Below are positions 2,890-55,189 of a stretch of 64,000 bases of DNA, piece by piece (the first letter of the stretch is position 1; each line of letters starts with the position of its first letter). This DNA comes from Candidatus Latescibacterota bacterium (GTDB taxonomy: Bacteria > Latescibacterota > UBA2968 > GCA-2709665). The stretch covers positions 832,001-896,000 of the forward strand of contig CAXXXF010000015.1 of assembly GCA_963667175.2 (NCBI GenBank), in the 5' to 3' direction. The notes under the pieces were generated by a model. It saw only the letters and a program-made list of their open reading frames with translations, searched no databases and had not been told where the DNA came from. The translations under genes and the position numbers were made by a program.

Positions 2890-3195
2890 ATAAAGGAAGA
2901 AGGAAGAACGTGAAGAGCGGGAAGACGGTAGAGGTGAGACGGTAGAGGACGTCTTCGCCCGTTTGAGCCTTCCTTTATGCCTCCGGCAAGAGATAAAACC
3001 CCACGGGGCAATAAAACCTGTGAGACGTGAGACGGTAGAGGATTACGTTTCCACAGTGTTTTCACATTAACCGTGCGTGTTTTTTTATTGTTATCGTAAC
3101 GACAAAACAAAAACCATAGGGCACTGATATCATCTCCCCTCTCCCCTTGGGTAAGGGGCAGGGGAAAGGTTGCTTTTGATTCAAGCTGACTGCTG
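2890..3195. repeat. Composite intergenic repeat (GAAGAAG and GTGAGAC heptamers, CTCCCC..GGGG hairpin, CTTTTGATTCAAGCTGAC)
   Basis: The same modules recur at 15280-15365 and 16370-16470. Confidence 0.6.
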
Positions 3196-3327
3196 TACGC
3201 TGAACGCGAATGGCTGTTCTCTATCTTCGAGACCCGCCGGGTCGCGGTACTCGAAGATAGAGAACATAACGCATGTGTCAAGCGGCGATGAGGCAGGTAT
3301 GCCGGGATTTTGAGAAAGAGCTTCGAT

Positions 3328-4566
3328 ATGGAGCGGATCAACCTGGGTCTCGTAGGGTGCGGCGGCATGGGCACGCGGCACCTCTATGGTCTGCGGACGC
3401 TCGCACGGTCACCATTCAACAGGATCGAGTTGCGGGCGTTGTGCGACGTCAATCGGGAGAACGCCGAGTTGGCGGCCGTAGAAGCCAGGAAACTGCTCGG
3501 AGCGGAGCCGGCGATCTATACAGATTTGGAGGCAATGGCCGCTGCGACGCCGGAACTGCATGCTGTCGACGTGGTGACCGATCCTGCGGTGCATCACGAG
3601 GTTGTCTGCACGGCACTGGACCTGGGCCTGCATGTGATGGTGGAAAAGCCGATGGCGATTACCGTGCGGGCCTGTCTGATGATGATTCAGGCGGCGGAAC
3701 GGAACCGGCGCGTGCTTTCCGTGGCGGAGAACTACCGGCGGGACCCGTCGGCGCGTCTGGTCCGACATATGGTGGGCGCCGGCGCGATAGGGGTCCCGTA
3801 CATGGGCCTGTTTCACGAGGTGAGCGGGAGCGATCGGATATTCATTACCCCGTGGCGCCACCTCAAGAATCGCGGCGGGCCGCTGCTGGACATGGGCGTG
3901 CACTATACCGACCTGATCCGCTATCAATTGGGGGATATCCGCGACGTGTACGGCGACGTGCGGCTTGTGGAGCCGGTTCGGCGAAAGGCCGAGACGACGT
4001 GGAGGCCCTATGAGTTCTACCGGAAGCAATTCGAAAATATGGAACCCGTCGTCCGGGCCGACGCCGAGGATTCGTCCGTGGCGATGTTTCGAATGGCTGG
4101 CGGCGCCACGGTGAGTTGGGTGGTTGGCCTGGGAGGATACGGGGGATGCAGCGCACAGCTGATTCTTGGGACGGAGGGGTGCATGGAGGGATTCGGAACC
4201 CGCGGCGGACGGGTGCGGATGCGTCGCGGGCGGGGCGATTTCCAGGAACAGGAGGAGATGCTGGCATCCGCGGACGGCTTCGAGCTGGATCCCGTGTCGT
4301 CGCATTTCTTCCCGTCCGGGCAAACGTCGGCCGATCGCGAGGTCGACAGGAAGCTGCTTGCCATCGAGTATTACGAATTGGGCGAGGCCATTGCCGAGGG
4401 CAAGGCCGTGGAGGTGGACGGGTTGGAGGGAATGAAGGACGTGGCCGCGGTATACGCGGTGTTCGAGTCCGCGGCGGCGGGATCCACCGTGCGGGTGGCG
4501 GACGTGGAAAGCGGCGAAATCGACGCCTATCAGGCGGACATTGACGCGGCGCTGGGTATTTCGTGA
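3328..4566 (+). CDS. Gfo/Idh/MocA family oxidoreductase
   Basis: GLVGCGGMG Rossmann motif, HVMVEKPMA, GGPLLDMGVHYTD. Confidence 0.92.
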   Translation: MERINLGLVGCGGMGTRHLYGLRTLARSPFNRIELRALCDVNRENAELAAVEARKLLGAEPAIYTDLEAMAAATPELHAVDVVTDPAVHHEVVCTALDLGLHVMVEKPMAITVRACLMMIQAAERNRRVLSVAENYRRDPSARLVRHMVGAGAIGVPYMGLFHEVSGSDRIFITPWRHLKNRGGPLLDMGVHYTDLIRYQLGDIRDVYGDVRLVEPVRRKAETTWRPYEFYRKQFENMEPVVRADAEDSSVAMFRMAGGATVSWVVGLGGYGGCSAQLILGTEGCMEGFGTRGGRVRMRRGRGDFQEQEEMLASADGFELDPVSSHFFPSGQTSADREVDRKLLAIEYYELGEAIAEGKAVEVDGLEGMKDVAAVYAVFESAAAGSTVRVADVESGEIDAYQADIDAALGIS

Positions 4567-41849: not shown

Positions 41850-44800
41850 ATGCACTCTTTCCCTGGCTTAACTATGGACAAACTTGAGTCTGGAACGGTC
41901 GTCGACGAGCGGTACGAGATCCTGGCTGCAATTGGTAGCGGTGGCTTAGGGACTGTATACCGTGCGCGCGACGTGAACGATAATGTCGTGGTGGCCGTGA
42001 AGATGTTAAATATCCCGGGAGACGAGGCGCAACGGCGGTTCCTCAGGGAGTTCAATATTCTCTCGAGAATCCGCCATCCGCGGATTGTGCGATCGCACCA
42101 TTGGGGCGTTTATCAGGGCAAACCGTATTTCTCGATGGATTTCATTTGCGGTCGCAACCTGTCCGAACTGATTGCCAGCAGGGAAGACCGCGAGACCCTA
42201 AGGACGTTTTGGTTCGATTCCTTTGTCCGGCAGATAGCCGAAGGTCTGGCGTACTTCCACAGCCACGGTCTGGTACATCGGGATCTTAAGCCCTCCAACG
42301 TAATGATCTCGATGGATGGCGACAAATTCAATGTGGTAATCCTCGATCTTGGTCTGGCTCGATTCCAGGATTCCAGGGAGCTGCGTCTGACGCAGCCGGG
42401 AAGCGCATCTGGCACAGTGGAATACATGTCCCCCGAACAGATCCGGGGCAGGGCGGTGGACCAGCGGTGCGACCTGTATTCGATGGGAATCATATTGTAC
42501 GAGGTCCTGACGGGCGAACCGCCCTTTACAGGCGGGAATCCGGCTTCGGTTATGTTCCAGCATTTGAGAGACCTGCCCCGGCCGCCTCGCGCTTACGGCG
42601 CGGGTGTTTCTTCACATATCCAGGGCGTGGTCATGAAGTTGCTGGAAAAGGAGCCGATTGACCGTTACGATTCTGTGCGGAGCCTCCTGCAAGACTTGGC
42701 CATGAGTGATGATGGCTCAATTGATCTCCAAACAGGTCGCGACCAGCCGCTAATGCAATCCGCTCCGTTTCTGTATCCGCAGTTCTTGGGCCGTGAAAGA
42801 GAGATGAAGGTGCTCCGGGAGGTTTTGAGGGATTCCGAAGAGGGGATGGGGCGGATGGTCCTGATAAATGGCGAGGCCGGGATTGGAAAGACCCAGGTCC
42901 TGGAGGAGTTTCAGGCCGACGCCCGCGTTCACGGGATGCGAATTTTGACCGGGCGCTGTCAGGAAAGCGGAGGCCGCGCTTATGGGCCGTTTCTTGAGGC
43001 ATTGCAGGAACTGGCGAAAAAGCCGAGAATTGAGGGAACAGATGCTGGCAATGCCGTTACGCGCGTGCTCGACGAACTTGATCGGCCGGTGTCAAACATC
43101 CAGAAAGACACCTATCCAGCTATGGAGATTCTGTCGGAATTTCTCGTTCACTTAAGCCGTGAGAAGCCGACCCTCATTTGTATTGAAGACCTGCAATGGG
43201 CCGACGACTTGAGCCTGAGATTCCTGGATTTCATGAAGAGGAATCCGGATCCAACGTCCCTTGTATTTGGCCTGACCTGCCGAAAGGAGGATGAAGACCC
43301 GCTCCCGGCTCGACTCGAAGCCTTTACCAAAGAGACGGATGCGCCGGGCGTTGTATATCTGCAACTTGAGCCGCTGAGCTCTGAAGAAACGACAGACCTG
43401 GCTGCATCCCTGATCGGCGAGCAGACTGTTCCTGAGGAAATAGCGCAAAGGATTTACGAGCAATCGGGCGGAAATCCACTTTTCATCGTTGAATTGGTCC
43501 GAAGTTCTATCGAGGGCGGTCCGATCAGTCAGGATTCATCCGGTCGATGGACGTGGAGGACCTCCCATGAGTGGCCGATGCCTTCGGGCGTCGTGCATGC
43601 CATTGAGTTTCGCCTCCGCCGGTTACGGGCCGCGCAGCGTCAGGTGCTGGAATACGCCTCGATCTTCCGCGGCGCGTTTTCGTTCGACATGATTTCACAG
43701 GTCTGGAGGGGGGATGACCTGGAGCTGCTAGAGGCTCTGGAAGGGCTTGTGCGATTGGGGCTCCTTAGTGCCCTTGAGGACTCCGAAGGAAAGCACTGCT
43801 TTGCACACGGATTATTGCAGAGGGCAGTTTACGAGGGGATCTCAGAAAAGAAACGCCTGCTGCTTCATCAGGAAGCGGGCAAGGCACTCGAGCCGAGATT
43901 CGAAACCGACGGAATTGAAGTCCTTGATGATCTGGCTTATCATTTCTCGAATTCCGACGACGTGGAAAAAATGACGCGTTATCTGACTGAGTCGGGTCGG
44001 TGGGCGCTTCGAATGCAGGATTTTTCGCGCGCCCTCCAGCAGTTCGAAGCGGTAATTGAAAAGCAGGCGTTCTCTTCCGACGCACCCGCGGCCGTTTCCC
44101 TGGGTTCGGTAGCGCACCTGGATTATCTCTGCGCCTATGCCGAGGCGCTTTGCGGATGTGATCGGTTTGACCAAGCTCGGTCCGAATTGGATAAAGCAAT
44201 GCAATGGGTGTCTGCCGAGACGCCCGCCCTGAAGGCGGACGCGTTGAGAATGTTGGGAATATGCTATTCGAATTCAGGTGAGAATCAATCTGCCGAGACC
44301 GTTCTGTTGGATGCGTTGGATACCTATCGCAATCTCGGCAACGACGAGATGGAACTGATGGTCTTGGGACTGCTGCCCAATGTTTACCTGGAACTCGGGT
44401 GTGAAGAAGCCGCGGTTAAATATTGTCAGTCAGCCGCTGACAGGTGCCGTGAACTGGGAGGAGACATCAACGAGGCCCGTGCGTTTTTGTTTCTTGCCTT
44501 TTCCGAAGAGATCTTGCACGAAACAGAACAGGCGAAATCGTCCCTTGAGTCATCGTTGAATCTGCTGGACCAAACGCAAGACCATCTCTATCGATACACC
44601 TGCCTGTATTTGTTGGGACGCATTGATGTAAGGCTGGGGAATTTCGACCGGGCCGAGCGAATTTTCCAGGATTTACGGGACTATTGGAGCAGAAGCGGCA
44701 CGAAGACTGCTTGTGGCGTAGCGTGGTTCTATCTTGGGAGCATTGCCCTGGAACGGGGAGATGCCGCGGGGGCTGAGGCGCATTTGCGCTCGGCTGAGCG

Positions 44801-46766
44801 GCTACTATCGGACGGTGGGAGTCACATTGAAGTCTACAGAGCCTGTGCGTTGTTGGCCGAGTCACTGGCTGAGATCGGCCACGCTGAAGAGGCGCTTCAG
44901 TGGATTGACAAGGCACGGGCGGGGTCAGAAATAGACGGGAATACACGCGCCGCGGTTTTGACTGCAGAGGCTAAAGTGCTGGCAGCGCGAGGTAGGGATG
45001 TCGACGTAGACTTGCTATTTGAAAGGGCGTCTCAATCCCAGGATCCACGGAACGGTCTTGAGCACGTACGACTGCTTCTTTTCGCCGGATCATACTATCT
45101 GGACAACCGGCGTTTACCGGAGGCCCGGTTATACCTGGAGAATGCTCGATCGGCTGCTAAGGCGATAGGACTGAGCTATTTTTGTGTTAAGGCATCCAAT
45201 ATGCTTGAACTTATCCCTGAGGAAGTCGAAAAGGGGCCAACCGTGACCGAACGCTCATCGGCGCTTTCTGAGAAGCATCTCGCGACGCTTTGTGACGTTT
45301 CGCAGGATTTAACGTCTGAACTCGACTTGGATGTCCTATTGGACCGTGTTCTCGAGCGTTTGACAAAAGTCAGTGGAGCCGAACGCGTACTGATAACCCT
45401 TAAGGAACAGACCGCGTTCGATGTTCAGGTTGCGCGCGCGCATAGAATCGAAGATTCGGCGACACGAGAGATTAGCCGAACCATTATAAAAAGGACGATC
45501 GCACGAAACGAGCCGATATTGAGCCTGGATGCAGGTGTCGACGAACGATTCGAGAAAGGAGATAGCATCGTGGACTTCGGCATCCGATCGGTGCTTTGTA
45601 TTCCATTGCACCATGCGGAGTCAGGCGTGATTGGCGCGCTGTATATGGACCATCGCGGGTTAGACCAAGTCTTCAACGAATCCGACATGTCGTTCATGTG
45701 CGCCTTCGGGAATCTGGTGTCCATTGCGGTCGTCAACGCCTGGAAGTATTCTCAGGTATTGGAACGCGCTCTTTTCTTGGGAAAGCAAGTTGAAGATCGC
45801 TATCAGATGGAAGGATTAGTCGGAAGGAGCCAGCCGATACGGGACGTATTCAACCTGATTGAGCAGGCCGCTGATAGCGGGGCTACGGTATTGATTCAGG
45901 GCGAGACGGGGACGGGTAAGGAGCTTGCTGCGCGGGCGATTCATTCCTCTGGTACAAGAAAGGACCGTTTGTTTCTATCCGCCAATTGCGCGGCGCTTTC
46001 ACCGGAGCTTCTTCAAAGCGAATTGTTTGGCCACAAGAAAGGCGCATTCACTGGCGCGACAACCGACAGAAAGGGACTGTTTGAATCCGCCGACGGTGGT
46101 ACGGTTCTCCTGGACGAAATCGGCGATGCGTCCCACGAGTTTCAGTCGAGCCTCCTGCGCGTGCTGCAGGAGGGTGAGTTCCAGCGGGTCGGCGAAACAT
46201 TGGGGCGTCGCGCCAACGTGCGGGTAATTGCATCTACGAATCGCGATCTCGAGTCGGATGTACGAAATGGTCGGTTTCGCGAAGATTTGTACTATCGCCT
46301 CCGGGTATTGCAGATAGAGATGCCTCCGCTACGCAATCACATCGAGGATACCCCGTTGTTGGCAGAACAGATCCTGCGACGGGTTTGCGCCTCACACAAA
46401 AAAAGTGTCCCTGGCTTCACTGTTGGGGCCATGCGTGTTTTGATGGACCACAGGTGGCCGGGCAACGTGCGGGAGTTGGAAAACGAGATCACGCGCGCGG
46501 TCGCGCTAGTGGAAGAAGGAAAAGAAATCTCCGCAGGTTTATTCTCCGTGGGAATTGGGTTGCGACAGCAGTTGAAGGACGATACCCGGGGGTTATTCAA
46601 ATCGCGTGTAGCCGCCTTTGAGAGGCGAATGATTATTGACGCACTCGACCAATCTGGCGGGAATATCACTCAAGCCGCCAATCAATTGGGGCTGAGCCGA
46701 AACGGACTTCAAAAAATGACAAAGCGGTTTGGTTTGAGGGCTGGAACTGAGAAAAAAAAGAAATGA
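41850..46766 (+). CDS. Ser/Thr kinase-AAA ATPase-TPR-GAF-sigma54 enhancer-binding protein with Fis HTH
   Basis: [50 protein letters not shown]-terminal HTH. Confidence 0.93.
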
Positions 46767-46767
46767 A

Positions 46768-46901
46768 GCGTATACAATGTAGGCAATATTTCGTATTTGT
46801 GATGCGGACCACGTTGAATTCAGTCTTAGTTCTTGTTATTGAATGGTTTATATGCTTTTTCAGTCAACAACGCGTCTGAATTGTGCATACAATGTATACG
46901 C
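46768..46901. promoter_or_regulatory. Pair of candidate upstream activating sequences
   Basis: GCGTATACAATGTAGGCA (46768-46785) and inverted TGCATACAATGTATACGC (46884-46901), 16 of 18 positions matching. Confidence 0.65.
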
Positions 46902-46999
46902 TTGATGGGTAGGTAGACTCAGTAGGCGCAAAATCTGTATCGTTTTTAACATGTTGTTTTTAGAGCGCTTGTGTGTATACACAGGCGCTTTTTTTTATC

Positions 47000-47014
47000 T
47001 GGTACGTTTGTTGC
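47000..47014 (+). promoter_or_regulatory. sigma54 -24/-12 promoter
   Basis: TGGTAC-GTTTG-TTGC immediately downstream of a sigma54 activator gene. Confidence 0.8.
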
Positions 47015-47122
47015 GTTGAATTTCGGACAAGGTGAAGGGGCAAATGCTCGCTACCGGCGAACTATCCTGACTTCGAGTACGGATCTGTGAATTTCCCTTC
47101 CAAACAAACAAGGAGACTGGCG

Positions 47123-47350
47123 ATGAGACCGAATAATTCTGGACGTCCTTTTCGTTCGATCAATGCGGCCCTCGACAAAAACGGTAGAATTCACGGTTGT
47201 CTTTCACCTTCGGAACCGATTAAGGGGATTGTCTGTGTCTGGCCTCGGTTCCCTGTACTACCGCCGCCCGTGAAAACAAAATCTGCGCTTGAGGATGCGT
47301 CAAGAGAATCCCATTCTGCCTGGCGTTCAGATGGGCAGAGAGGTAAATGA
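47123..47350 (+). CDS. Putative 75-aa RiPP precursor peptide
   Basis: AAGGAG RBS; first ORF after the sigma54 promoter; stop lies 1 bp before the radical SAM start; FRSIN leader-like motif, GCLSPSEP and CVWP. Confidence 0.7.
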   Translation: MRPNNSGRPFRSINAALDKNGRIHGCLSPSEPIKGIVCVWPRFPVLPPPVKTKSALEDASRESHSAWRSDGQRGK

Positions 47351-47351
47351 C

Positions 47352-48797
47352 GTGTTGCAAATAGAAAAATCGGATATACATCTGTTTAGAACGTCCGAAG
47401 ACAACCGTGCAATAATGTTCCAGGTTGATACCGGATTGTTTTTTGAGCTATACCCTCTTGCTGAGACCATTTTGAAGGAATGCGATGGTCTATCGGCTGA
47501 GAACATTGTGTCTAATCTTGACGGTGAATACAATCGTAGCGACGTACTAAATACAATTGAAGCCCTCGCGGAAGCAGGGTTTATATCGGATGCGTCCCTA
47601 CATATGCTTCCGACTAAAGCACTTGTCGATGAACGGCCCTGCGAATCGCCAGGGCTGAACACGTTCTCAGATCCGTTTCATATTACGCTTCACGTGGCGC
47701 ATGCGTGTAACATAAAGTGCGCTTATTGTTTTGCCCATGGCGGGGACTATGGCGGCCAGCCGGGAGTTATGCAGCCGGACGTCGCGCATCAGGCGGTACG
47801 ATGGGCGTTGGATTCTTCCATCCCATTCCGTAGATGCCAGATAGACTTCTTCGGCGGCGAACCTCTTCTGAATTTCGAACTGATTGGCGAGGTCGTTCCG
47901 TTTGCACGTGAATACGCCCGGAAGGTTGGGGTGGACGTCTCTTTTGGCATTACGACAAACGGTTCCTTAATGACAGAAGAAATAAACCAGTTCTTGATGG
48001 ATGAAGAATTCCAGATCAAAGTAAGCATAGACGGTAGCGCAGCTGTACAAAACCGGCTTCGAAAATTCCACGACGGGAGCGACACGCACGATGTTGTTGC
48101 CGAGAACGTTCGAAAGCTGACCGAGCGGTCTTCCGATCGAGTAGCTGTCCACGCAACGATGACATCCTTCAACATGGATGGGGAAGCCATAGGAAGGGAC
48201 CTGGAAGAGTTGGGCGCCGCCCATGTGGAGTTGGCTCCGGTTGTCGCCTCTCCAAAGGCGCCCTATGCCTTTCGCGAAGAACATCTCCCGGAGCTGAAAC
48301 GAGGGCTGCGAAAGCAGAGCCAACGGGAGTTGAAGTCGATTCTTGGCGGTACCCTTGATCGAGGATTCTTCGACGAGTACATCGAGAGATTGATGAGACG
48401 CGCGAAAGCCTGCCATGGATGCCATGGCGGGAAGACGTTTTTCGCGGTGGCTGCGGATGGCGCGATCTATTTCTGTTCCAGTTTGGCGGACAGCCCGGAC
48501 TTCAAGATGGGGGACGTATTCACCGGGCTGGACGGGCAAGTTCAAGACGAAATCAACGAGACGTTCCATGTAGATAACCGCAGTGATTGCCGCACATGCT
48601 GGGCAAGGAATCTCTGCGGCGGAGGATGTCTGTTCGATGCGCGAGCTGCAACGGGAGATCCCATGAAACCTAATCCGGTCTCGTGCGAACAGATACGCTA
48701 CCGGTATGAATTGGCCATGGAGATGGGCCTGGAAATCCAGAACCGAGACGAGACGATCCTGGGAGAGCGGTACAATCTGAAACGGATACATATATGA
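47352..48797 (+). CDS. Radical SAM/SPASM peptide maturase with N-terminal RRE-like domain
   Basis: CNIKCAYC, FFGGEPLL, TTNG, SIDG, CHGG..YFC, CRTCWARNLCGGGC..C. Confidence 0.92.
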   Translation: MLQIEKSDIHLFRTSEDNRAIMFQVDTGLFFELYPLAETILKECDGLSAENIVSNLDGEYNRSDVLNTIEALAEAGFISDASLHMLPTKALVDERPCESPGLNTFSDPFHITLHVAHACNIKCAYCFAHGGDYGGQPGVMQPDVAHQAVRWALDSSIPFRRCQIDFFGGEPLLNFELIGEVVPFAREYARKVGVDVSFGITTNGSLMTEEINQFLMDEEFQIKVSIDGSAAVQNRLRKFHDGSDTHDVVAENVRKLTERSSDRVAVHATMTSFNMDGEAIGRDLEELGAAHVELAPVVASPKAPYAFREEHLPELKRGLRKQSQRELKSILGGTLDRGFFDEYIERLMRRAKACHGCHGGKTFFAVAADGAIYFCSSLADSPDFKMGDVFTGLDGQVQDEINETFHVDNRSDCRTCWARNLCGGGCLFDARAATGDPMKPNPVSCEQIRYRYELAMEMGLEIQNRDETILGERYNLKRIHI

Positions 48798-48895
48798 TAG
48801 AGACCTGGAACACGTAACCGTTTTCGACTAGACTGACAGTGTCGAATCCCAGGCGCCCCATCCACAAGCTTTGAAGACTCCACATCGTTCGAATA

Positions 48896-50377
48896 ATGAA
48901 ACCAAAAATGAACCCGGCATCACCACGTTACAGGAAAGAATGTCACATATTTGAAGCTGACGGACGAACCATTCTGTTCGACGTGGAAGGCATTCGCGCC
49001 TTCTACGTTAACGACGTGGAACGCGAAATTATGGCCTTATGCGACGGCAGGAAAGCAAAAGAAATCATCAGCGCCCTGGGCGCCGTTTATCCCTCTGATC
49101 TTATTCACAACGCATTGGACCGCCTGAGCGAATTGGGACTAATGACCGACAGGTGTCACGAATCTGCTACGATCAGTGCTCCCGAACAGGTCGAAGTAAC
49201 CCATCTAAATATCGATTTGGCACACGATTGCGATATGGCATGCGGCTACTGTTACCTGGAGCCGATTCTTCAGCGGGAAAAACCAAGATATATGGACGAA
49301 AAAACCGCTTTACGGGCGGTAGATTTCTTGATGGATGCATCTGGAGTATCAAAGACATTGTACATGAGCTTCTACGGTGGTGAACCGTTGTTGGCCGGCC
49401 CACTGTTAAAACGAACGGTGGATTACGCAAACGAGCAAGCGGCTGCCCTTGAGAAAGATATCTTTTTTGATATCACCACAAATGGTTTGCAATTGAGGGA
49501 AAACACTGCCAGGGATCTCGCTAAGAGGGGTGTTTTCATTTCAGCAAGTATCGATGGAACCCAGGAAGTTCACGACGCTCTGCGAATAAAGGAGGAAGGG
49601 ACAAATACGTACTCCAGGGTCGTTGATGTCGTGCGCATGTTGGATCGCCTTTCTTTAAACGGCTTTGGACTTAGAGCTACGGCGACTGCACAGGATTTCG
49701 ATTGGGCCGGACAGCTTGCGCACCTCTTGAATCTAGCACCTACTGCCCACCAGGTCTATCTGGTACAAGCAGTGCTGCAACGGGACGATGCACGCGCTAT
49801 TTCAGAACATCACATTGCTGACGTCAAGGCCGCCCTGTCGGATATAAGATGGTTGATTCAGGATCATGTCTTGACAAATAACCCAACATGGATCGGCAAG
49901 TTAGAGGACGATATCTGGCAGATTGCGAATCAGAAGAAGAAACTCTATTCGTGCGGGGCAGGGGTCCGGAATCTGACGGTCTGTCCACAGGGCGACCTCT
50001 ATACATGCTCTGGCCTCGTCGGTGATCTTTCTTTTAGAGTGGGTGACATCTTTGAAGGGATTGACGTCCAAAAACGAAAGCAGTGGATGATCGACCACAT
50101 AGTGGGTGCAACAGATCAAAGGGATTGGTCACGTTTTCTTTCCGGCGGGAGTTGCTACTTCCGCAGCTTCGTCCGAGACGGAGATACAAGGTCCGTTGAC
50201 TTGATGGAGCGTGAAATTACCAATTATTCGCACGAACAGACTATCGCAACGTACTTGCAAATTGCCGAAAAGTCGCCCGGTATACTTGAGGCTCGGTACG
50301 ATGCACCAAGTGAAACGAATCACGAAGTAAGTCTCGAATTACCTCACGAATGTATGCTTCATCGCGTCCACCGATAG
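48896..50377 (+). CDS. Second radical SAM peptide maturase with RRE-like domain and degenerate SPASM
   Basis: CDMACGYC, FYGGEPLL, CGAG..YTC; ATDQRDWSRFLSGGSC replaces Cx2Cx5Cx3C. Confidence 0.88.
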   Translation: MKPKMNPASPRYRKECHIFEADGRTILFDVEGIRAFYVNDVEREIMALCDGRKAKEIISALGAVYPSDLIHNALDRLSELGLMTDRCHESATISAPEQVEVTHLNIDLAHDCDMACGYCYLEPILQREKPRYMDEKTALRAVDFLMDASGVSKTLYMSFYGGEPLLAGPLLKRTVDYANEQAAALEKDIFFDITTNGLQLRENTARDLAKRGVFISASIDGTQEVHDALRIKEEGTNTYSRVVDVVRMLDRLSLNGFGLRATATAQDFDWAGQLAHLLNLAPTAHQVYLVQAVLQRDDARAISEHHIADVKAALSDIRWLIQDHVLTNNPTWIGKLEDDIWQIANQKKKLYSCGAGVRNLTVCPQGDLYTCSGLVGDLSFRVGDIFEGIDVQKRKQWMIDHIVGATDQRDWSRFLSGGSCYFRSFVRDGDTRSVDLMEREITNYSHEQTIATYLQIAEKSPGILEARYDAPSETNHEVSLELPHECMLHRVHR

Positions 50378-50430: not shown

Positions 50431-51414
50431 ATGAGAACTCCGCTCTGTGTTTTCACACCACAGGTTGGTACGATTTCGGAAACCTTCATCCGCCGCCATG
50501 TAAAGGATCTGCTGCCCGGCGGAACCGTCGCGATAACATGCCAGGTAGGTGATCCGGCACGATCCAGTTGGAGTGTAGACGGTCCGATGCTCGTGTTAGA
50601 TCACATCGAACCGGTTCGGTTCACACGAGAGACCGGTTGGGAGTTTGCTTCGAGTCATTTGGACGCAATAAAAGGATACTTGCAGGAAAACCGGGTGCAG
50701 GTTGTATTGGGAGAATACCTGGACGTGTGCCTGCCTCTTTTGGAGATCGCTCTAGAGTTGGACATTCCATTCTGGGGTCACGCGCATGGCTACGACATCT
50801 CGATGCGTCTACGTGATCCCGACATGAGAGATAAGTACCTGAGATACAGCGACGGGGCAGGCGTTATTGTTGGTTGTGAGTGGGCCCGAGAAAGGCTAAT
50901 TCGATTGGGTCTTCCGACCCAGAAGCTTTACGTCGCAGCCTGTGGTGTTGCCGTGCCGAAACGACCGGTGATCCGGTCGTTTCGGGGACAAATCCGATGC
51001 TTGGCAGTCGGACGCTTTGTGCCCAAGAAAGGTCCTTTATTCACTCTGGCTGCGATTCGCAAAGCGTTGAAAGTGTGTCCAAATCTACGATTGGATTTTA
51101 TCGGTTCAGGTGAAATGTTGCCTGCGGCTCAGGAGGAGGCAATGGCGCACAACCTTCCAGTTGTTGCGACCCGACATGCCGGCATTCCGGAGGCAGTGAA
51201 AGAAGGAATAACTGGATTCTTGGTTAATGAAGGCAATACCATCGGCATGGCGGAGTATGTCGTCAGGCTGGCGCACGTTGGGGAATTGCGCGATCGCATG
51301 GGAAATGCCGGCCGTACGCGGATCGTTGAGCGTTTTTGCTGGGGAGACGAACGTCTTGCTTTATTGGACCTGTTCGGACTTCGAAATGGCACTGACGGCA
51401 CTGCAGCAGCTTGA
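50431..51414 (+). CDS. Glycosyltransferase family 4, apparently internally deleted
   Basis: SETFIRRH, HAHGYD, VGRFVPKKG, EAMA..PVVATRHAGIPE; segment before EAMA missing. Confidence 0.75.
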   Translation: MRTPLCVFTPQVGTISETFIRRHVKDLLPGGTVAITCQVGDPARSSWSVDGPMLVLDHIEPVRFTRETGWEFASSHLDAIKGYLQENRVQVVLGEYLDVCLPLLEIALELDIPFWGHAHGYDISMRLRDPDMRDKYLRYSDGAGVIVGCEWARERLIRLGLPTQKLYVAACGVAVPKRPVIRSFRGQIRCLAVGRFVPKKGPLFTLAAIRKALKVCPNLRLDFIGSGEMLPAAQEEAMAHNLPVVATRHAGIPEAVKEGITGFLVNEGNTIGMAEYVVRLAHVGELRDRMGNAGRTRIVERFCWGDERLALLDLFGLRNGTDGTAAA

Positions 51415-51477
51415 ATAACGGATTTCGACATGGGCTGCGATCAGAATTGCCGTAATGCTTAATCTTGAAGGGGGTAG

Positions 51478-52068
51478 ATGAAGATGCAATCTAAGGAAGA
51501 TGGCAAGAACTTCGCACTGGTCGTGCTTGGCTTGGGCAGGTCCTTTCTCGATATCCCACGAATTATGAGAATTGCGAGCGAAGAGCACTCCAACGCTGTA
51601 ATTGTCACTGGTCGCGGCGCCTGTGAAGACGTAATAAAGTTCGTAAAGCACATCGCCCGAGACGTCGAAATCTTGCCGGTTGAGAATGGATCTGCATCTT
51701 CGACCATCGGGAATTCGTTCATGAGCGGCCAGAAGCCACCACACGTACTTGCCGAACGACTCGATCGTTATTTGGAACAACATTACCAACAGGATTCATT
51801 GAGATTGAGGGATCTATGTACCAGCTTTCGGATCTCGTCAAGTTATGTTACTCGGCTCTTCAGGGAACATGTGGGTATGTCGTTTCGGAAACGGCTGAAT
51901 CTACACAGGATAAGGAAAGCGAAGGATCTGCTGAAAACCACGGACCAAACCGTGGATTGCATTGCGAAGGACTGCGGCTTCAAGAATCATACGCGGCTCA
52001 CAGAAGCGTTCTATCGGTTTGAAGGCATGCCGCCGGGTCAGTTCAGGAGGGACTATTCCTCTTCCTAA
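51478..52068 (+). CDS. AraC-family regulator with short receiver-like N-terminus
   Basis: SSSYVTRLF, RIRKAKDLL, IAKDCGF, GMPPGQFR. Confidence 0.8.
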   Translation: MKMQSKEDGKNFALVVLGLGRSFLDIPRIMRIASEEHSNAVIVTGRGACEDVIKFVKHIARDVEILPVENGSASSTIGNSFMSGQKPPHVLAERLDRYLEQHYQQDSLRLRDLCTSFRISSSYVTRLFREHVGMSFRKRLNLHRIRKAKDLLKTTDQTVDCIAKDCGFKNHTRLTEAFYRFEGMPPGQFRRDYSSS

Positions 52069-52122
52069 AACGAAGAGGGTGAGATGCCACATTCTGCAAT
52101 TTCTGACGGAGGACATGGGAAT

Positions 52123-53052
52123 ATGGATTCGAAAGAGACAGTCTTGCGAGGGTCAACGTGCAAGATTCATTCGTCTGCTGTTGTTGGTTCCGGAACCAGA
52201 GTAGGCGAGTATACGAAAATTATGGCTAGAGCGAGGGTTGGTTCCGTATGCGAAATCGGACACAATGTAGTGATCCACAACGACACTGTAATTGAAGACA
52301 ACGTGCGGATCGACGATTACGCGTCCGTGGGGAAGTTGCCAATGAAAGCTGTTGCGAGTGTCTTTGATGCAGATATGAAACTCGAGCCAGCCCAAATTGG
52401 TACTGGTTGTCTGATTGGTACGTCAGCGATTCTCTATCGCGGCTGCAGAATTGGGGAACACGTGCTTGTCGCGGACCTGGCGACCGTTCGGGAACACAGC
52501 AAGGTGGGCGATTTTACCATAGTTGGACGCGGGGTTGCGGTCGAAGGCCACGTAAATGTAGGACCGCGCTGCAAAATTGAAGCCGGGGCGTATATTGCCG
52601 GACCTACTGATATTGAGGAAGGGTGTTTCATTGCACCTGGAGTCGTCGTAACGAATGACAATTTCATGGGGCGTACGGAAGCCCGGAAGAAACAATTTAG
52701 AGGCATCAGCATGAACGTTGGAGGTCGAATAGGCGCGAATGCTACTTTGCTGCCTGGAAAGAGGATTGCCCCGGATGGAGTGGTGGCCGCCGGCGCAGTA
52801 GTTACGCATGACGTGCCATCTCGGACGATCGTATCCGGAGTACCGGCGCGCTATTTTGGGGAGGTCCCACACGACCAACTGTGGCCAAACCAGGAATCGC
52901 GCCTGAACGGCAAAGACGCTTCGAATCAGCTCGAAAAGGTCGCGCGATTGCCGCACTTGGATCGGCAGCACGCATCCGAGATGGAAGCAACCGGGATCGT
53001 GTTCTTTTTCGATGAATTCGCATTCGAGTACAGGAATGATTCTTCAGATTAG
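52123..53052 (+). CDS. Hexapeptide-repeat (left-handed beta-helix) N-acetyltransferase
   Basis: IHSSAVV, FIAPGVVVTND, IGANATLLPG, AAGAVVTHDV, GVPAR. Confidence 0.88.
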   Translation: MDSKETVLRGSTCKIHSSAVVGSGTRVGEYTKIMARARVGSVCEIGHNVVIHNDTVIEDNVRIDDYASVGKLPMKAVASVFDADMKLEPAQIGTGCLIGTSAILYRGCRIGEHVLVADLATVREHSKVGDFTIVGRGVAVEGHVNVGPRCKIEAGAYIAGPTDIEEGCFIAPGVVVTNDNFMGRTEARKKQFRGISMNVGGRIGANATLLPGKRIAPDGVVAAGAVVTHDVPSRTIVSGVPARYFGEVPHDQLWPNQESRLNGKDASNQLEKVARLPHLDRQHASEMEATGIVFFFDEFAFEYRNDSSD

Positions 53053-53062
53053 GAATTCGACC

Positions 53063-53614
53063 ATGGGTGTCGAAAGGGGTCCCGAGTATTACGATGAGGT
53101 GTATGGGTCTACGGAACTTTACCGACTTCACTATACTGAGTCGCGTTGCTACGCACTTTGGGGGCGGATCTTGAAGTTCCTGTCCATCTATCCATCGCCG
53201 CGTATCCTGGAAATTGGGAGCGGCACGGGGCAGTTAGCGCATCTGCTGTGGGACGAAGGATATAGAAATTATAGGGGGTTCGATTTTAGTCCCGAAGCAA
53301 TTCGTATCGCGAACGGGATTTGCAAGCAGTCTTTCTGGGTAGCCGACGCACGGGAGCCGAAGACTTACGCTTGCGACTATGATTTGGTACTGGCAGTTGA
53401 CCTGCTGGAACACGTAGAAGACGATTTCGGGATTATCGGTCACATTAAAAAGGGAACCCCCTTTATTTTCACCTTGCCGACATTTGATGACCCGGCGCAT
53501 GTGAGATGGTTCAGGCATCCGGAAGAGATCTATGAGCACTACGGCTCGCATATTGGATTTACCGGTGTGTCCTTCGTCAACCCGTGGTTCGTTTGTCTGG
53601 GTACGAATTACTGA
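53063..53614 (+). CDS. Class I SAM-dependent methyltransferase
   Basis: ILEIGSGTG, GFDFS, LLEHVEDD. Confidence 0.88.
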   Translation: MGVERGPEYYDEVYGSTELYRLHYTESRCYALWGRILKFLSIYPSPRILEIGSGTGQLAHLLWDEGYRNYRGFDFSPEAIRIANGICKQSFWVADAREPKTYACDYDLVLAVDLLEHVEDDFGIIGHIKKGTPFIFTLPTFDDPAHVRWFRHPEEIYEHYGSHIGFTGVSFVNPWFVCLGTNY

Positions 53615-53665
53615 ATGGCAGCCGGTAAGTGATTTGTTGCCGCTTGACTAACTCTGAGACGCTTA

Positions 53666-55189
53666 ATGCCCTTGCTTCTATCTGGCGTGTTAGCCGCTGT
53701 CACTCTTGTAAGGCTGATACCTCGTTTATCGGCTCCTGCAATGGTGTCGGACACCTATGCACACTGGACTTGGATAAAGCGAATAAAGAAAGACGGCTAC
53801 CACTGCACGCACAAGATGGTTCACTATTACCCATTGGGGTTTCACCGAATGATCAGTGTATTGCCGCATCGCTTACTGGTGTGTTGGGAGAAAGTGAACG
53901 GTGCGTTCTTCGACGGCGTCCACGTTTTGCTGTTTGCATTGGTCCTCGATACATTTGCTAAAGGGTTAGAGGATGTAATCGTTTGGGGCTGGGGACCCTT
54001 GTTGTTAGGTCTGTCTCCCGGCTGGCTTTCGTTAGGCCGCGGACCTCGGGCGTACCATGGTACGCCCCGCGTATGGGGCGAGTTGCTTGTCAGCTGTGCA
54101 TTTGTAAGCCTGTGGTTTTTCCAGGATACGGGTTCTTGGTATTGGTGGTGTGGCGCTACGGGCTCAGGCGCACTTCTCCTATTGTCGAGTAAGTTCGGTA
54201 CGCAGACGCTTGTGTTTTTCTGCGTGATTGTGGGTCTGTTACAGTGGAGTATTCCTGTTATATGCTTGCCTCTTGTATCTCTCGCCGGTGCTTTTCTGGT
54301 TTCAAAAGGCAACTATAAGGCGATTCTGAGCGGACATTTGCGGCATCTGGTTTGGTACGCAATGCGCGTACAAAAAGGTGAGATGTTTGTTGCCGGACGT
54401 AATTCACTAACCGCGATTCGGCGGGTCTATCGCAGAGAAGGAATCCGGGGCGCCCTGACCCATTTCTTTACCGTGAATGGCGTGGGAACAGGTGTCTTTC
54501 AGCATCCCCTGCTATGCGTTGTGCTGATTCTAAGCCTTTTGGACGTGGGCATCTTGGAAGGGTCGGTCTTTGCGTGGCACTGGTTGCTGGCCGGAGTTGC
54601 CACGTGGCTGCTTTCTTCAACTCGCCGTCTATTGTTCGTCGGCGCTGCTGAGCGTTATCTGTTTATGGTTGCCGTAGCAGAATATTTCCTCGTTTGCCAA
54701 TGGCTTGCCACGGTATCTCCTTTCTGGCGTTGGGCTTTTGTGAGTATATGCGTTTTGTATTGGGTGCGCTACGTGTGGCGGTTTCAATGCATATACGGAG
54801 GCTATTATCTGGAAAGCGAATCCAGAAAGCAGGTGATTAGATTCCTTGCGGGTCTTCAACCGGCACGAATCCTCGCATTTGATCGGGCTCCGGCGTGGGA
54901 CGTGGCGTTCAAAACTGACCACGAACACTTTATGATGGTGCCCGAATTCGGAACAGCGGCAGCGTGGGATGCAGTGTTTGCCTTCGATACCTATCCCAAA
55001 TGGACTGCGGTTTCGCTCTTGGGTGTGGAGTTGATATTGGTGAATCGAGATGCAATTGCCGATGCGATCCGGAGAAATGTTTCGGTGAAATTTCCATTTT
55101 CGGATCTTCGAAAGCTCTTTGACAACAAGGCATATCAAGTTTATAGGGTGGAAGTTTCCCACCAGAAGATGTCCCTTTGTACTCACTAA
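53666..55189 (+). CDS. Polytopic membrane protein (possibly GT-C-like)
   Basis: Many TM segments; SDTYAH, YYPLGFH, TPR and ERY loop motifs. Confidence 0.65.
   Translation: MPLLLSGVLAAVTLVRLIPRLSAPAMVSDTYAHWTWIKRIKKDGYHCTHKMVHYYPLGFHRMISVLPHRLLVCWEKVNGAFFDGVHVLLFALVLDTFAKGLEDVIVWGWGPLLLGLSPGWLSLGRGPRAYHGTPRVWGELLVSCAFVSLWFFQDTGSWYWWCGATGSGALLLLSSKFGTQTLVFFCVIVGLLQWSIPVICLPLVSLAGAFLVSKGNYKAILSGHLRHLVWYAMRVQKGEMFVAGRNSLTAIRRVYRREGIRGALTHFFTVNGVGTGVFQHPLLCVVLILSLLDVGILEGSVFAWHWLLAGVATWLLSSTRRLLFVGAAERYLFMVAVAEYFLVCQWLATVSPFWRWAFVSICVLYWVRYVWRFQCIYGGYYLESESRKQVIRFLAGLQPARILAFDRAPAWDVAFKTDHEHFMMVPEFGTAAAWDAVFAFDTYPKWTAVSLLGVELILVNRDAIADAIRRNVSVKFPFSDLRKLFDNKAYQVYRVEVSHQKMSLCTH

Follow-up and report, generated by a model that had tools for sequence, protein, structure and literature searches.

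We analyzed a 64,000-nt stretch of DNA from Candidatus Latescibacterota bacterium (assembly GCA_963667175.2, contig CAXXXF010000015.1, positions 832,001 to 896,000; hereafter the window), in which a short open reading frame (ORF) is followed by two genes for radical S-adenosylmethionine (SAM) enzymes. This locus is probably a minimal, SCIFF-like cassette for a ribosomally made, post-translationally modified peptide (RiPP) under sigma-54 control, in which the first radical-SAM enzyme (enzyme 1) would install a single Cys-derived thioether in the peptide. Comparisons across genomes indicate that the activator, the peptide, and the radical-SAM enzyme make up a real and conserved three-gene unit of uncultivated Latescibacterota. 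The parts of the cassette are present and strictly linked across 30 loci, and enzyme 1 has an intact fold and intact cluster-binding cysteines. A preliminary description of this DNA had proposed a RiPP-type system at this site, and this proposal holds, with a genuine precursor and a radical-SAM/SPASM enzyme bearing a RiPP recognition element (RRE).

The precursor peptide gene (47123–47350, + strand) encodes 75 amino acids (aa) and represents the subtype that we call type A, as established by alignments, profile searches, and ratios of nonsynonymous to synonymous polymorphism (pN/pS). The gene reads as originally quoted, and the strong ribosome-binding site (RBS) claimed for it was found as the Shine-Dalgarno sequence AAGGAG at 47110–47115 (+ strand), 7 nt 5′ of the ATG at 47123. 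The leader of this peptide follows the pattern (F/L)-x-x-(I/V)-N-(G/A)..D..G.I and the core the pattern P-I-x4-C38-x-W-P-x-F-x2-L-P-P-P, after which the C-terminal tail is variable. The peptide has two cysteines, Cys26 and the invariant Cys38, whose codon is at 47234–47236. In an alignment of 12 peptides spanning two bacterial families (A1), M1, N14, G21, C38, and P49 were invariant, and L10, D18, I23, P44, and P47 were nearly so. Most variation in the peptide gene fell at third codon positions, and pN/pS summed over pairs was 0.55 in type A (6 sequences) and 0.43 in type B (26 sequences), the second subtype of the family. The peptide is under purifying selection, and the 75-aa ORF is a real coding gene, given that comparison with other genomes recovered the same conserved gene.

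Altogether, the peptide-family set had 51 unique members, with 14 in type A, 32 in type B, and 5 fitting neither motif, and the Cys was located within its motif in 46 of the 51. Common to both subtypes is the leader (K/R)-x-(L/F)-x-x-(I/V)-N-(G/A)-x-x-D-x-x-G-x-I. Type A, to which the window peptide belongs, is defined around the Cys by P(−6), I(−5), W(+2), P(+3), F/W(+5), L(+8), and PPP(+9 to +11), followed by a variable tail, while type B has the Cys, six hypervariable residues, V-P-(P/L)-(L/V)-P-F-P, and then a C-terminal acidic run, (D/N)-D-D-D. The peptides carry one to three Cys, and the sole core residue invariant in both subtypes is the Cys of these motifs. An acceptor residue at position Cys−7 was considered as a general rule and rejected; in all of the 12 peptides collected first, this position held E, T, N, or D, and in the 14 type A peptides it was T in six, E in three, A in two, and N, R, or S in one each.

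Homologues of enzyme 1 were found in 17 of the 41 related genomes searched, often as two or three copies per genome. At 12 of 12 loci, window included, a 58–75-aa ORF with an AAGGAGG-type RBS was located directly 5′ of the enzyme-1 homologue, and a sigma-54 activator gene was located 5′ of this small ORF. Among the 30 loci retrieved with the peptide profile, the enzyme gene followed the peptide gene in 28, both misses being at contig ends. Searched against 1.84 billion representative proteins, the peptide-family profile matched 22 at E ≤ 1e-3; we took in 20 of these and left out P0011 (642 aa) and P0016 (1,373 aa), which matched in several short stretches. The peptide family is rare: in a set of 168 Latescibacterota genomes, the same profile recovered 44 places in 20 of them, and only 2 of the 49 genera were represented. 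One is the genus of the window, with matches in the window's own genome and in 3 of 14 others; the second, from a sister family, had matches in 16 of 21 genomes. Eight peptide clusters that were looked up in public sources were all nameless and had one to three members each, and a protein atlas look-up of the peptide returned no usable match. A locus search with enzyme 1 retrieved one close locus, in a genome of the same genus, and more distant radical-SAM genes, from Bacillota and others, were used only to diversify the enzyme alignment (A2). Horizontal transfer was evaluated by composition and rejected, as GC content was unremarkable (0.43–0.60 across 36–58 kb).

A sigma-54 promoter had been proposed for this operon, and the wider comparison bore it out. 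The putative −24/−12 promoter, TGGTACGTTTGTTGC, is located at 47000–47014 (+ strand), 108 nt 5′ of the peptide ATG, and has the expected spacing of the −24 GG and −12 GC. It is the sole match to TGGYAYN5TTGC in the window; given that 0.45 matches were expected by chance, this single match would be weak evidence taken alone. The promoter is convincing because it is conserved across loci: the strict pattern GG[CT]A[CT]G-N4-T[TG]GC occurred in 30 of 30 loci within 200 nt 5′ of the peptide ATG, at distances of 59–128 nt, and had no match in 170,894 nt of background (the rest of the same loci, both strands). Additionally, the genome has an rpoN gene (431 bits vs. a cut-off of 277). Promoter, adjacent enhancer-binding protein, and rpoN, the three elements of a sigma-54-dependent operon, thus all appear to be in place.

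The adjacent activator gene (41850–46766, + strand) encodes an enhancer-binding protein of 1,638 aa, identified by its Pfam domains. These are, in order, a Ser/Thr kinase, an AAA_16 domain (STAND-like NTPase), TPR, GAF, a sigma-54 interaction AAA+ domain, and HTH_8, with E-values of 7e-68 for Sigma54_activat, 1e-48 for Pkinase, 2e-32 for AAA_16, 7e-15 for GAF, and 2e-11 for HTH_8. In 7 of 7 extended loci, the peptide was preceded by an ORF of 1,590–1,628 aa, and the C-terminal part of the activator was found upstream in 29 of 30 peptide loci, the single miss being at a contig end. Each cassette copy comes with its own kinase-fused activator of ∼1,600 aa, and genomes of the sister genus have two or three such pairs each.

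Between the activator gene and the promoter, two copies of G(T/C)ATACAATGTA are located at 46770–46784 and 46885–46899 (46770–46899 overall, + strand), ∼230 and ∼115 nt 5′ of the promoter. Here, GYATACAATGTA occurs twice with a spacing of 115 nt, picked up as a direct repeat (D1) and a 28-nt inverted repeat (I1). These repeats are candidate activator-binding sites, and analogous imperfect palindromes were seen by eye upstream at the other loci of the 12-locus set. On the 3′ side of the candidate sites, a terminator-like, G+C-rich hairpin followed by a T run spans 46962–46998 (+ strand), with a stem of 13 pairs, 6 of them GC, in the terminator scan. By eye, a hairpin and T run were present at the same place, directly 5′ of the −24 element, in 12 of 12 loci (the window and L002–L012). 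This hairpin probably ends the activator transcript and insulates the peptide operon from read-through. A search of the intergenic region against Rfam yielded nothing above the gathering score; the best match, L20_leader (27.5 bits vs. 58.7), was located over the hairpin.

Two tandem radical-SAM genes follow the peptide gene, as first described, and both encode the CX3CX2C motif. Enzyme 1 (47352–48797, + strand) is a radical-SAM/SPASM maturase with an N-terminal RRE. Its likely start is the GTG at 47352, preferred because of the alignment with orthologues; this codon is two bases past the peptide stop and has GAGAGG 8 nt upstream, and the alternative ATG at 47331 would overlap the last 20 nt of the peptide gene. 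The CX3CX2C motif (C126, C130, C133) was nearly invariant in A2, and enzyme 1 and 11 orthologues had the full SPASM Cys set (C364, C382, C420, C423, C429, C433, and C452).

The AlphaFold2 model of enzyme 1, built from a 19-row alignment, had a predicted local distance difference test score (pLDDT) of 85.8 and a predicted template modeling score (pTM) of 0.85. In this model, the N-terminal domain consists of strands at residues 11–40 and helices at 42–50, 56–62, and 69–81 (pLDDT 87–93), and is followed by a disordered linker. In Foldseek, the whole model, N-terminal domain included, matched CteB (5WGG) with an E-value of 1.6e-32 and a target TM-score of 0.80 over 463 columns, and CteB 5WGG was also the best solved structure by sequence (E = 6.9e-53). 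The RRE-like N-terminal extensions that had been noted on both radical-SAM enzymes were confirmed at ∼90–115 aa, with weak PqqD matches in Pfam (enzyme 1, E = 3.8e-4; enzyme 2, E = 1.3e-3; each slightly below the gathering score) and, for enzyme 1, with the fold model. The best NCBIfam matches of enzyme 1 were QhpD (TIGR03906, an equivalog model; 247.4 bits vs. a cut-off of 453), the SCIFF maturase (TIGR03974; 245.8 bits vs. 425), the nif11 maturase (243 bits), and PapB (223 bits vs. 340), all under their cut-offs. The model and these matches support a place for enzyme 1 in the QhpD/CteB clade and a predicted RRE at its N-terminus.

These parts suggest the following mechanism. The upstream 1,638-aa kinase/STAND/TPR/GAF enhancer-binding protein would sense a signal, bind the repeats 115–230 nt upstream of the promoter, and activate sigma-54 RNA polymerase at 47000–47014, yielding a transcript that would code for the 75-aa precursor and its maturase. 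The RRE of enzyme 1 would then bind the leader, (F/L)xx(I/V)N(G/A)..D..G.I, and radical chemistry would join Cys38 to a carbon of another residue, resulting in one thioether macrocycle, as in sactipeptides and ranthipeptides. We infer that the peptide is the substrate of enzyme 1 and that the product is a thioether, and the same applies to the choice of acceptor and to the fate of the product.

The predicted complex of the peptide with enzyme 1 scored 0.57, compared to 0.00 for the best of three controls, and was classed as weak support; runs agreed on at least 73% of contacts, and the pLDDT of the partner was at least 47. For calibration, 58 of 80 solved complexes reached the mark for this prediction, as did 2 of 110 mismatched pairs; passes at a score of 0.60 or less came from only 7 of these solved complexes and from the two mismatches. 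A cassette without protease or exporter could also be explained if the small ORF were not a substrate, but rather an upstream ORF with a regulatory role or a small protein that has nothing to do with the enzyme. We regard this as very unlikely, given that peptide and enzyme co-occur strictly, that the peptide has the typical build of RiPP precursors, with a conserved leader ahead of a hypervariable stretch surrounding one Cys, that the enzyme has an RRE, whose role is leader binding, and that the complex prediction did pass, if weakly, over its controls.

Several observations weigh against a thioether cassette of the kind proposed. Enzyme 1 is below every curated cut-off, and therefore its chemistry is not assigned by homology. 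The complex prediction was a weak pass only, and this pass may reflect likeness to the solved CteB-peptide complex, 5WGG, rather than binding here. Asp, Glu, Asn, and Thr are the acceptor residues of characterized ranthipeptides, and type A cores have none of these conserved near the Cys; in type B, an invariant acidic run is located 14–17 residues past the Cys. The acceptor may differ between types A and B, or a different kind of link may be formed. In no locus was a leader peptidase or an exporter linked to the cassette. Finally, the metagenomic type B peptide P0008 is without any Cys, and four other metagenomic peptides (P0009, P0014, P0019, and P0020) look truncated or frameshifted after the leader. 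These Cys-less and truncated members could be decaying copies or assembly errors.

The same cassette and substrate could instead serve another radical-SAM/SPASM reaction, such as formation of a C–C or C–O link at Trp, Phe, or Pro, or epimerization, and the Cys would then anchor the peptide to an auxiliary cluster or have another role. The low family scores of enzyme 1 and the Cys-less P0008 are consistent with such a reaction, as are the type A invariants besides Cys (W+2, P+3, F/W+5, L+8, and PPP), which include no canonical thioether acceptor. Additionally, the accessible portion of a review on SPASM enzymes (PMC10114670) states that the determinant of thioether vs. cyclophane vs. ether formation is not known. 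However, the four top-scoring families and the best structural match are all thioether-forming, cyclophane- and ether-forming families scored far lower (YhhB 77 bits, FxsB 61, and DynA 88), and the Cys is the one core residue that both subtypes keep invariant. We therefore consider a different reaction unlikely.

Another, clearly improbable, scenario combines two ideas: a closed peptide-signaling loop, in which the activator would sense the cross-linked peptide or its build-up, and a Cys linked to a non-canonical acceptor within C-x-W-P-x-F-x2-L-P-P-P. If true, every copy, of which a genome has one to three, would act as an autoinduction circuit of its own, and the linkage, thioether or other, would be one not yet described for this enzyme clade.

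The preliminary description had gone beyond a RiPP assignment, likening the peptide to QhpC (the gamma subunit of an amine dehydrogenase), of which it would be a shortened, stand-alone version multiply cross-linked by two QhpD-like enzymes. According to the accessible portion of PMC7876137, QhpC has a 28-residue leader needed for enzyme-substrate interaction and four cross-linked Cys, comprising three Cys-to-Asp/Glu thioethers and the Cys-Trp link of the cysteine tryptophylquinone cofactor, and its operon, qhpABCDEFGR, includes a protease, an exporter, and a monooxygenase. The strings FRSIN, GCLSPSEP, CVWP, and AWR are indeed present in the window peptide in the order given as QhpC-like, and QhpD was the nominal top NCBIfam match for both enzymes (247 and 195 bits). 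Both enzymes were nonetheless far under the QhpD cut-off of 453, with nearly equal scores for SCIFF, nif11, and PapB maturases, and the second enzyme is absent from most cassettes. Only 6 of 14 type A peptides, and none of type B, have the Cys26 of GCLSPSEP, which is replaced by Tyr or another residue in most relatives; AWR falls within the tail, which is not conserved, and is ASR in P0003, the nearest relative (96% identical, 3 differences in 75 residues). One invariant Cys stands against the four cross-linked Cys of QhpC.

Profile searches of the peptide against the QhpC family, which had been suggested as a check, came out negative. The 12 family peptides had no match at E ≤ 10 to the QhpC Pfam model PF08992, other Pfam models, or NCBIfam precursor models, the lone weak match in the Pfam and NCBIfam scans being a single one to WIAG-tail (0.15), and the peptide-family profile matched no PDB chain at E ≤ 10, solved QhpC subunits included. 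In the genome, which is 95% complete, PF08992 had no match at E ≤ 1, a search without a positive control, as 14 control genomes also had none above the cut-off. The QhpA heme domain, PF09098, had no match at E ≤ 0.01, also without a positive control and with QhpB, QhpE, QhpF, and QhpG not individually searched, and QhpD (TIGR03906) had none above its cut-off. The absence of an amine dehydrogenase, noted earlier for the window, thus extends to QhpC, QhpA, and above-threshold QhpD in the genome, QhpG not having been searched. The cassette is flanked by the activator and by glycosyltransferase, AraC regulator, acyltransferase, and methyltransferase genes, a setting unlike that of a qhp operon. 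These comparisons indicate that the peptide is a new family and not a shortened QhpC copy, and the motif order aligned by eye is a coincidence of a single sequence. A truncated QhpC is thus already refuted at the level of homology, as far as these searches go, and we consider it scarcely credible overall. The underlying RiPP proposal had been tied to an RRE in the enzymes and to a conserved peptide at homologous loci; an RRE is predicted and homologous loci carry the peptide, and neither result speaks against it.

The second radical-SAM gene (enzyme 2; 48896–50377, + strand) encodes a paralogue with an RRE-like N-terminus that keeps CX3CX2C; the conserved unit does not include this gene. Enzymes 1 and 2 share 29% identity, and the best relatives of enzyme 2 (29–32% identity, 218–226 bits) belong to a different family of the same class. 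Its NCBIfam scores were below the cut-offs (QhpD, the nominal top match, 194.9 bits; SCIFF maturase 184.7 bits), and its best solved match by sequence was CteB, with the alignment running from residue 16 in enzyme 2 and residue 7 in CteB onward. Enzyme 2 is without equivalents of C420, C423, C429, and C452, which presumably bind auxiliary cluster II (in the anSME/CteB scheme), and keeps the Cys assigned to auxiliary cluster I. No Shine-Dalgarno sequence was visible before its ATG. A second radical-SAM gene was present in only 2 of the cassettes examined, and in the syntenic cassette of the closest genome, enzyme 1 leads directly to the glycosyltransferase. The preliminary description had made a pair of enzymes a feature of the system, which we could not uphold given these counts, the separate lineage of enzyme 2, and its missing auxiliary cluster II Cys. 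Enzyme 2 appears to be an accessory, lineage-specific addition, possibly partly degenerate.

The second protein of the only further type A cassette with such a protein, in genome G010 (L026:10211–11602), is without CX3CX2C and keeps the SPASM motif CX2CX5CX3C, as does a relative of enzyme 2 in genome G077 (L069:5583–6983, − strand). The second-protein lineage thus seems degenerate in complementary ways, which points to a function as accessory or scaffold and not to a second step of catalysis. A third and possibly related type of cassette, from another family of the same class, was seen in two genomes (L069:5583–10084, − strand; L070:2432 onward, + strand, also seen as L062). Its peptide has a MERKRH-(L/M)-x-LVNG leader, and the A1 profile detected neither of the two examples. 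This peptide adjoins two or three radical-SAM-like genes, which follow it and encode an intact radical-SAM/SPASM enzyme, a 454-aa protein with an N-terminus that is RRE-like by eye, and a SPASM protein without CX3CX2C.

Downstream of the cassette in the window (50431–55189) are genes for a GT4 glycosyltransferase, an AraC-type regulator, a hexapeptide-repeat acyltransferase, and a methyltransferase, and a 507-aa ORF without Pfam match; in the closest genome (L013), the four named genes also come after enzyme 1, in unchanged order. These genes look like a polysaccharide-modification cluster that is outside the cassette. In 4 of 12 loci, all type B (L008–L011, ∼2950–3860), the enzyme gene is followed by a conserved 300–302-aa ORF without Pfam match, and at L025:10544–13531 a 635-aa tyrosinase-domain protein (6e-34) comes after this ORF. 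At three other type B loci, a short sigma-54 activator (324–344 aa) follows the enzyme gene instead.

Radical-SAM/SPASM RiPP systems with an RRE are a well-known kind of system; what is new in detail is the family of precursors, the subfamily of enzymes, and the fact that a kinase-fused sigma-54 activator is obligatorily coupled to them. We found no description of this cassette in the literature searched, supplements excluded, and compendia such as PMC10288494 may list the enzymes; the accessible portion of a biosynthetic gene cluster survey (PMC9902471) does not mention it. With this cassette, the radical-SAM thioether peptides gain a family of precursors that has no name and a distinct subfamily of maturases, from a candidate phylum without cultured members to test. 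The wiring of the cassette is unusually clean, as each copy has an activator to itself, together with candidate sites for activator binding, a terminator that insulates, and a sigma-54 promoter. With a single invariant Cys and a small conserved core, the peptide would make a simple substrate for probing acceptor choice in this clade. The idea of a repurposed amine-dehydrogenase subunit, on the other hand, does not hold and is corrected here.

Among known systems, the cassette resembles SCIFF systems (ScfA-ScfB; CteA-CteB of Clostridium thermocellum, 5WGG/5WHY) in that a short precursor is followed by one RRE-radical-SAM-SPASM enzyme, and SCIFF and other ranthipeptide two-gene systems similarly have no linked protease or exporter. 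By sequence, no solved structure matched either enzyme better than CteB, which was also the top fold match of enzyme 1, and the hydrophobic-x-hydrophobic-(I/V)-N motif near the N-terminus of the leader may resemble the SCIFF leader. In contrast, SCIFF peptides have six Cys in ∼45 residues, compared to one invariant Cys here, and the peptides of this family match no SCIFF or other NCBIfam precursor model at E ≤ 10. Enzyme 1 also scored 246 bits vs. the SCIFF maturase cut-off of 425. The Pro-rich core, the constant coupling to a sigma-54 promoter and a giant kinase-fused activator, and the occurrence in Latescibacterota rather than Bacillota further set the cassette apart.

QhpC-QhpD is similar in that the enzymes of the cassette belong to the same broad clade, with QhpD as nominal top NCBIfam match, and in that a leader is needed for enzyme-substrate interaction, as stated for QhpC in the accessible portion of PMC7876137 and as would apply here. 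It differs by the single invariant Cys of our peptides, the lack of a profile match, the lack of qhpA and qhpC in the genome, and enzyme scores under the QhpD cut-off. PapA-PapB (freyrasin) and NxxcA-NxxcB ranthipeptides are similar in that PapB is among the four best families of enzyme 1 (223 bits, under the cut-off of 340). In PapB substrates, Cys/Asp pairs recur at close spacing, unlike the single Cys of our peptides, from which the acidic run is 14–17 residues distant in type B and missing in type A. The accessible portion of PMC9413430 describes Asp or Glu as acceptor for PapB, a point of likeness to type B, where an invariant Asp run comes after the Cys. Single-Cys sactipeptides are, according to the accessible portion of PMC10288494, too few for training a classifier; KgrA, which that paper mentions, resembles the cassette in pairing a single-Cys precursor with a radical-SAM enzyme.

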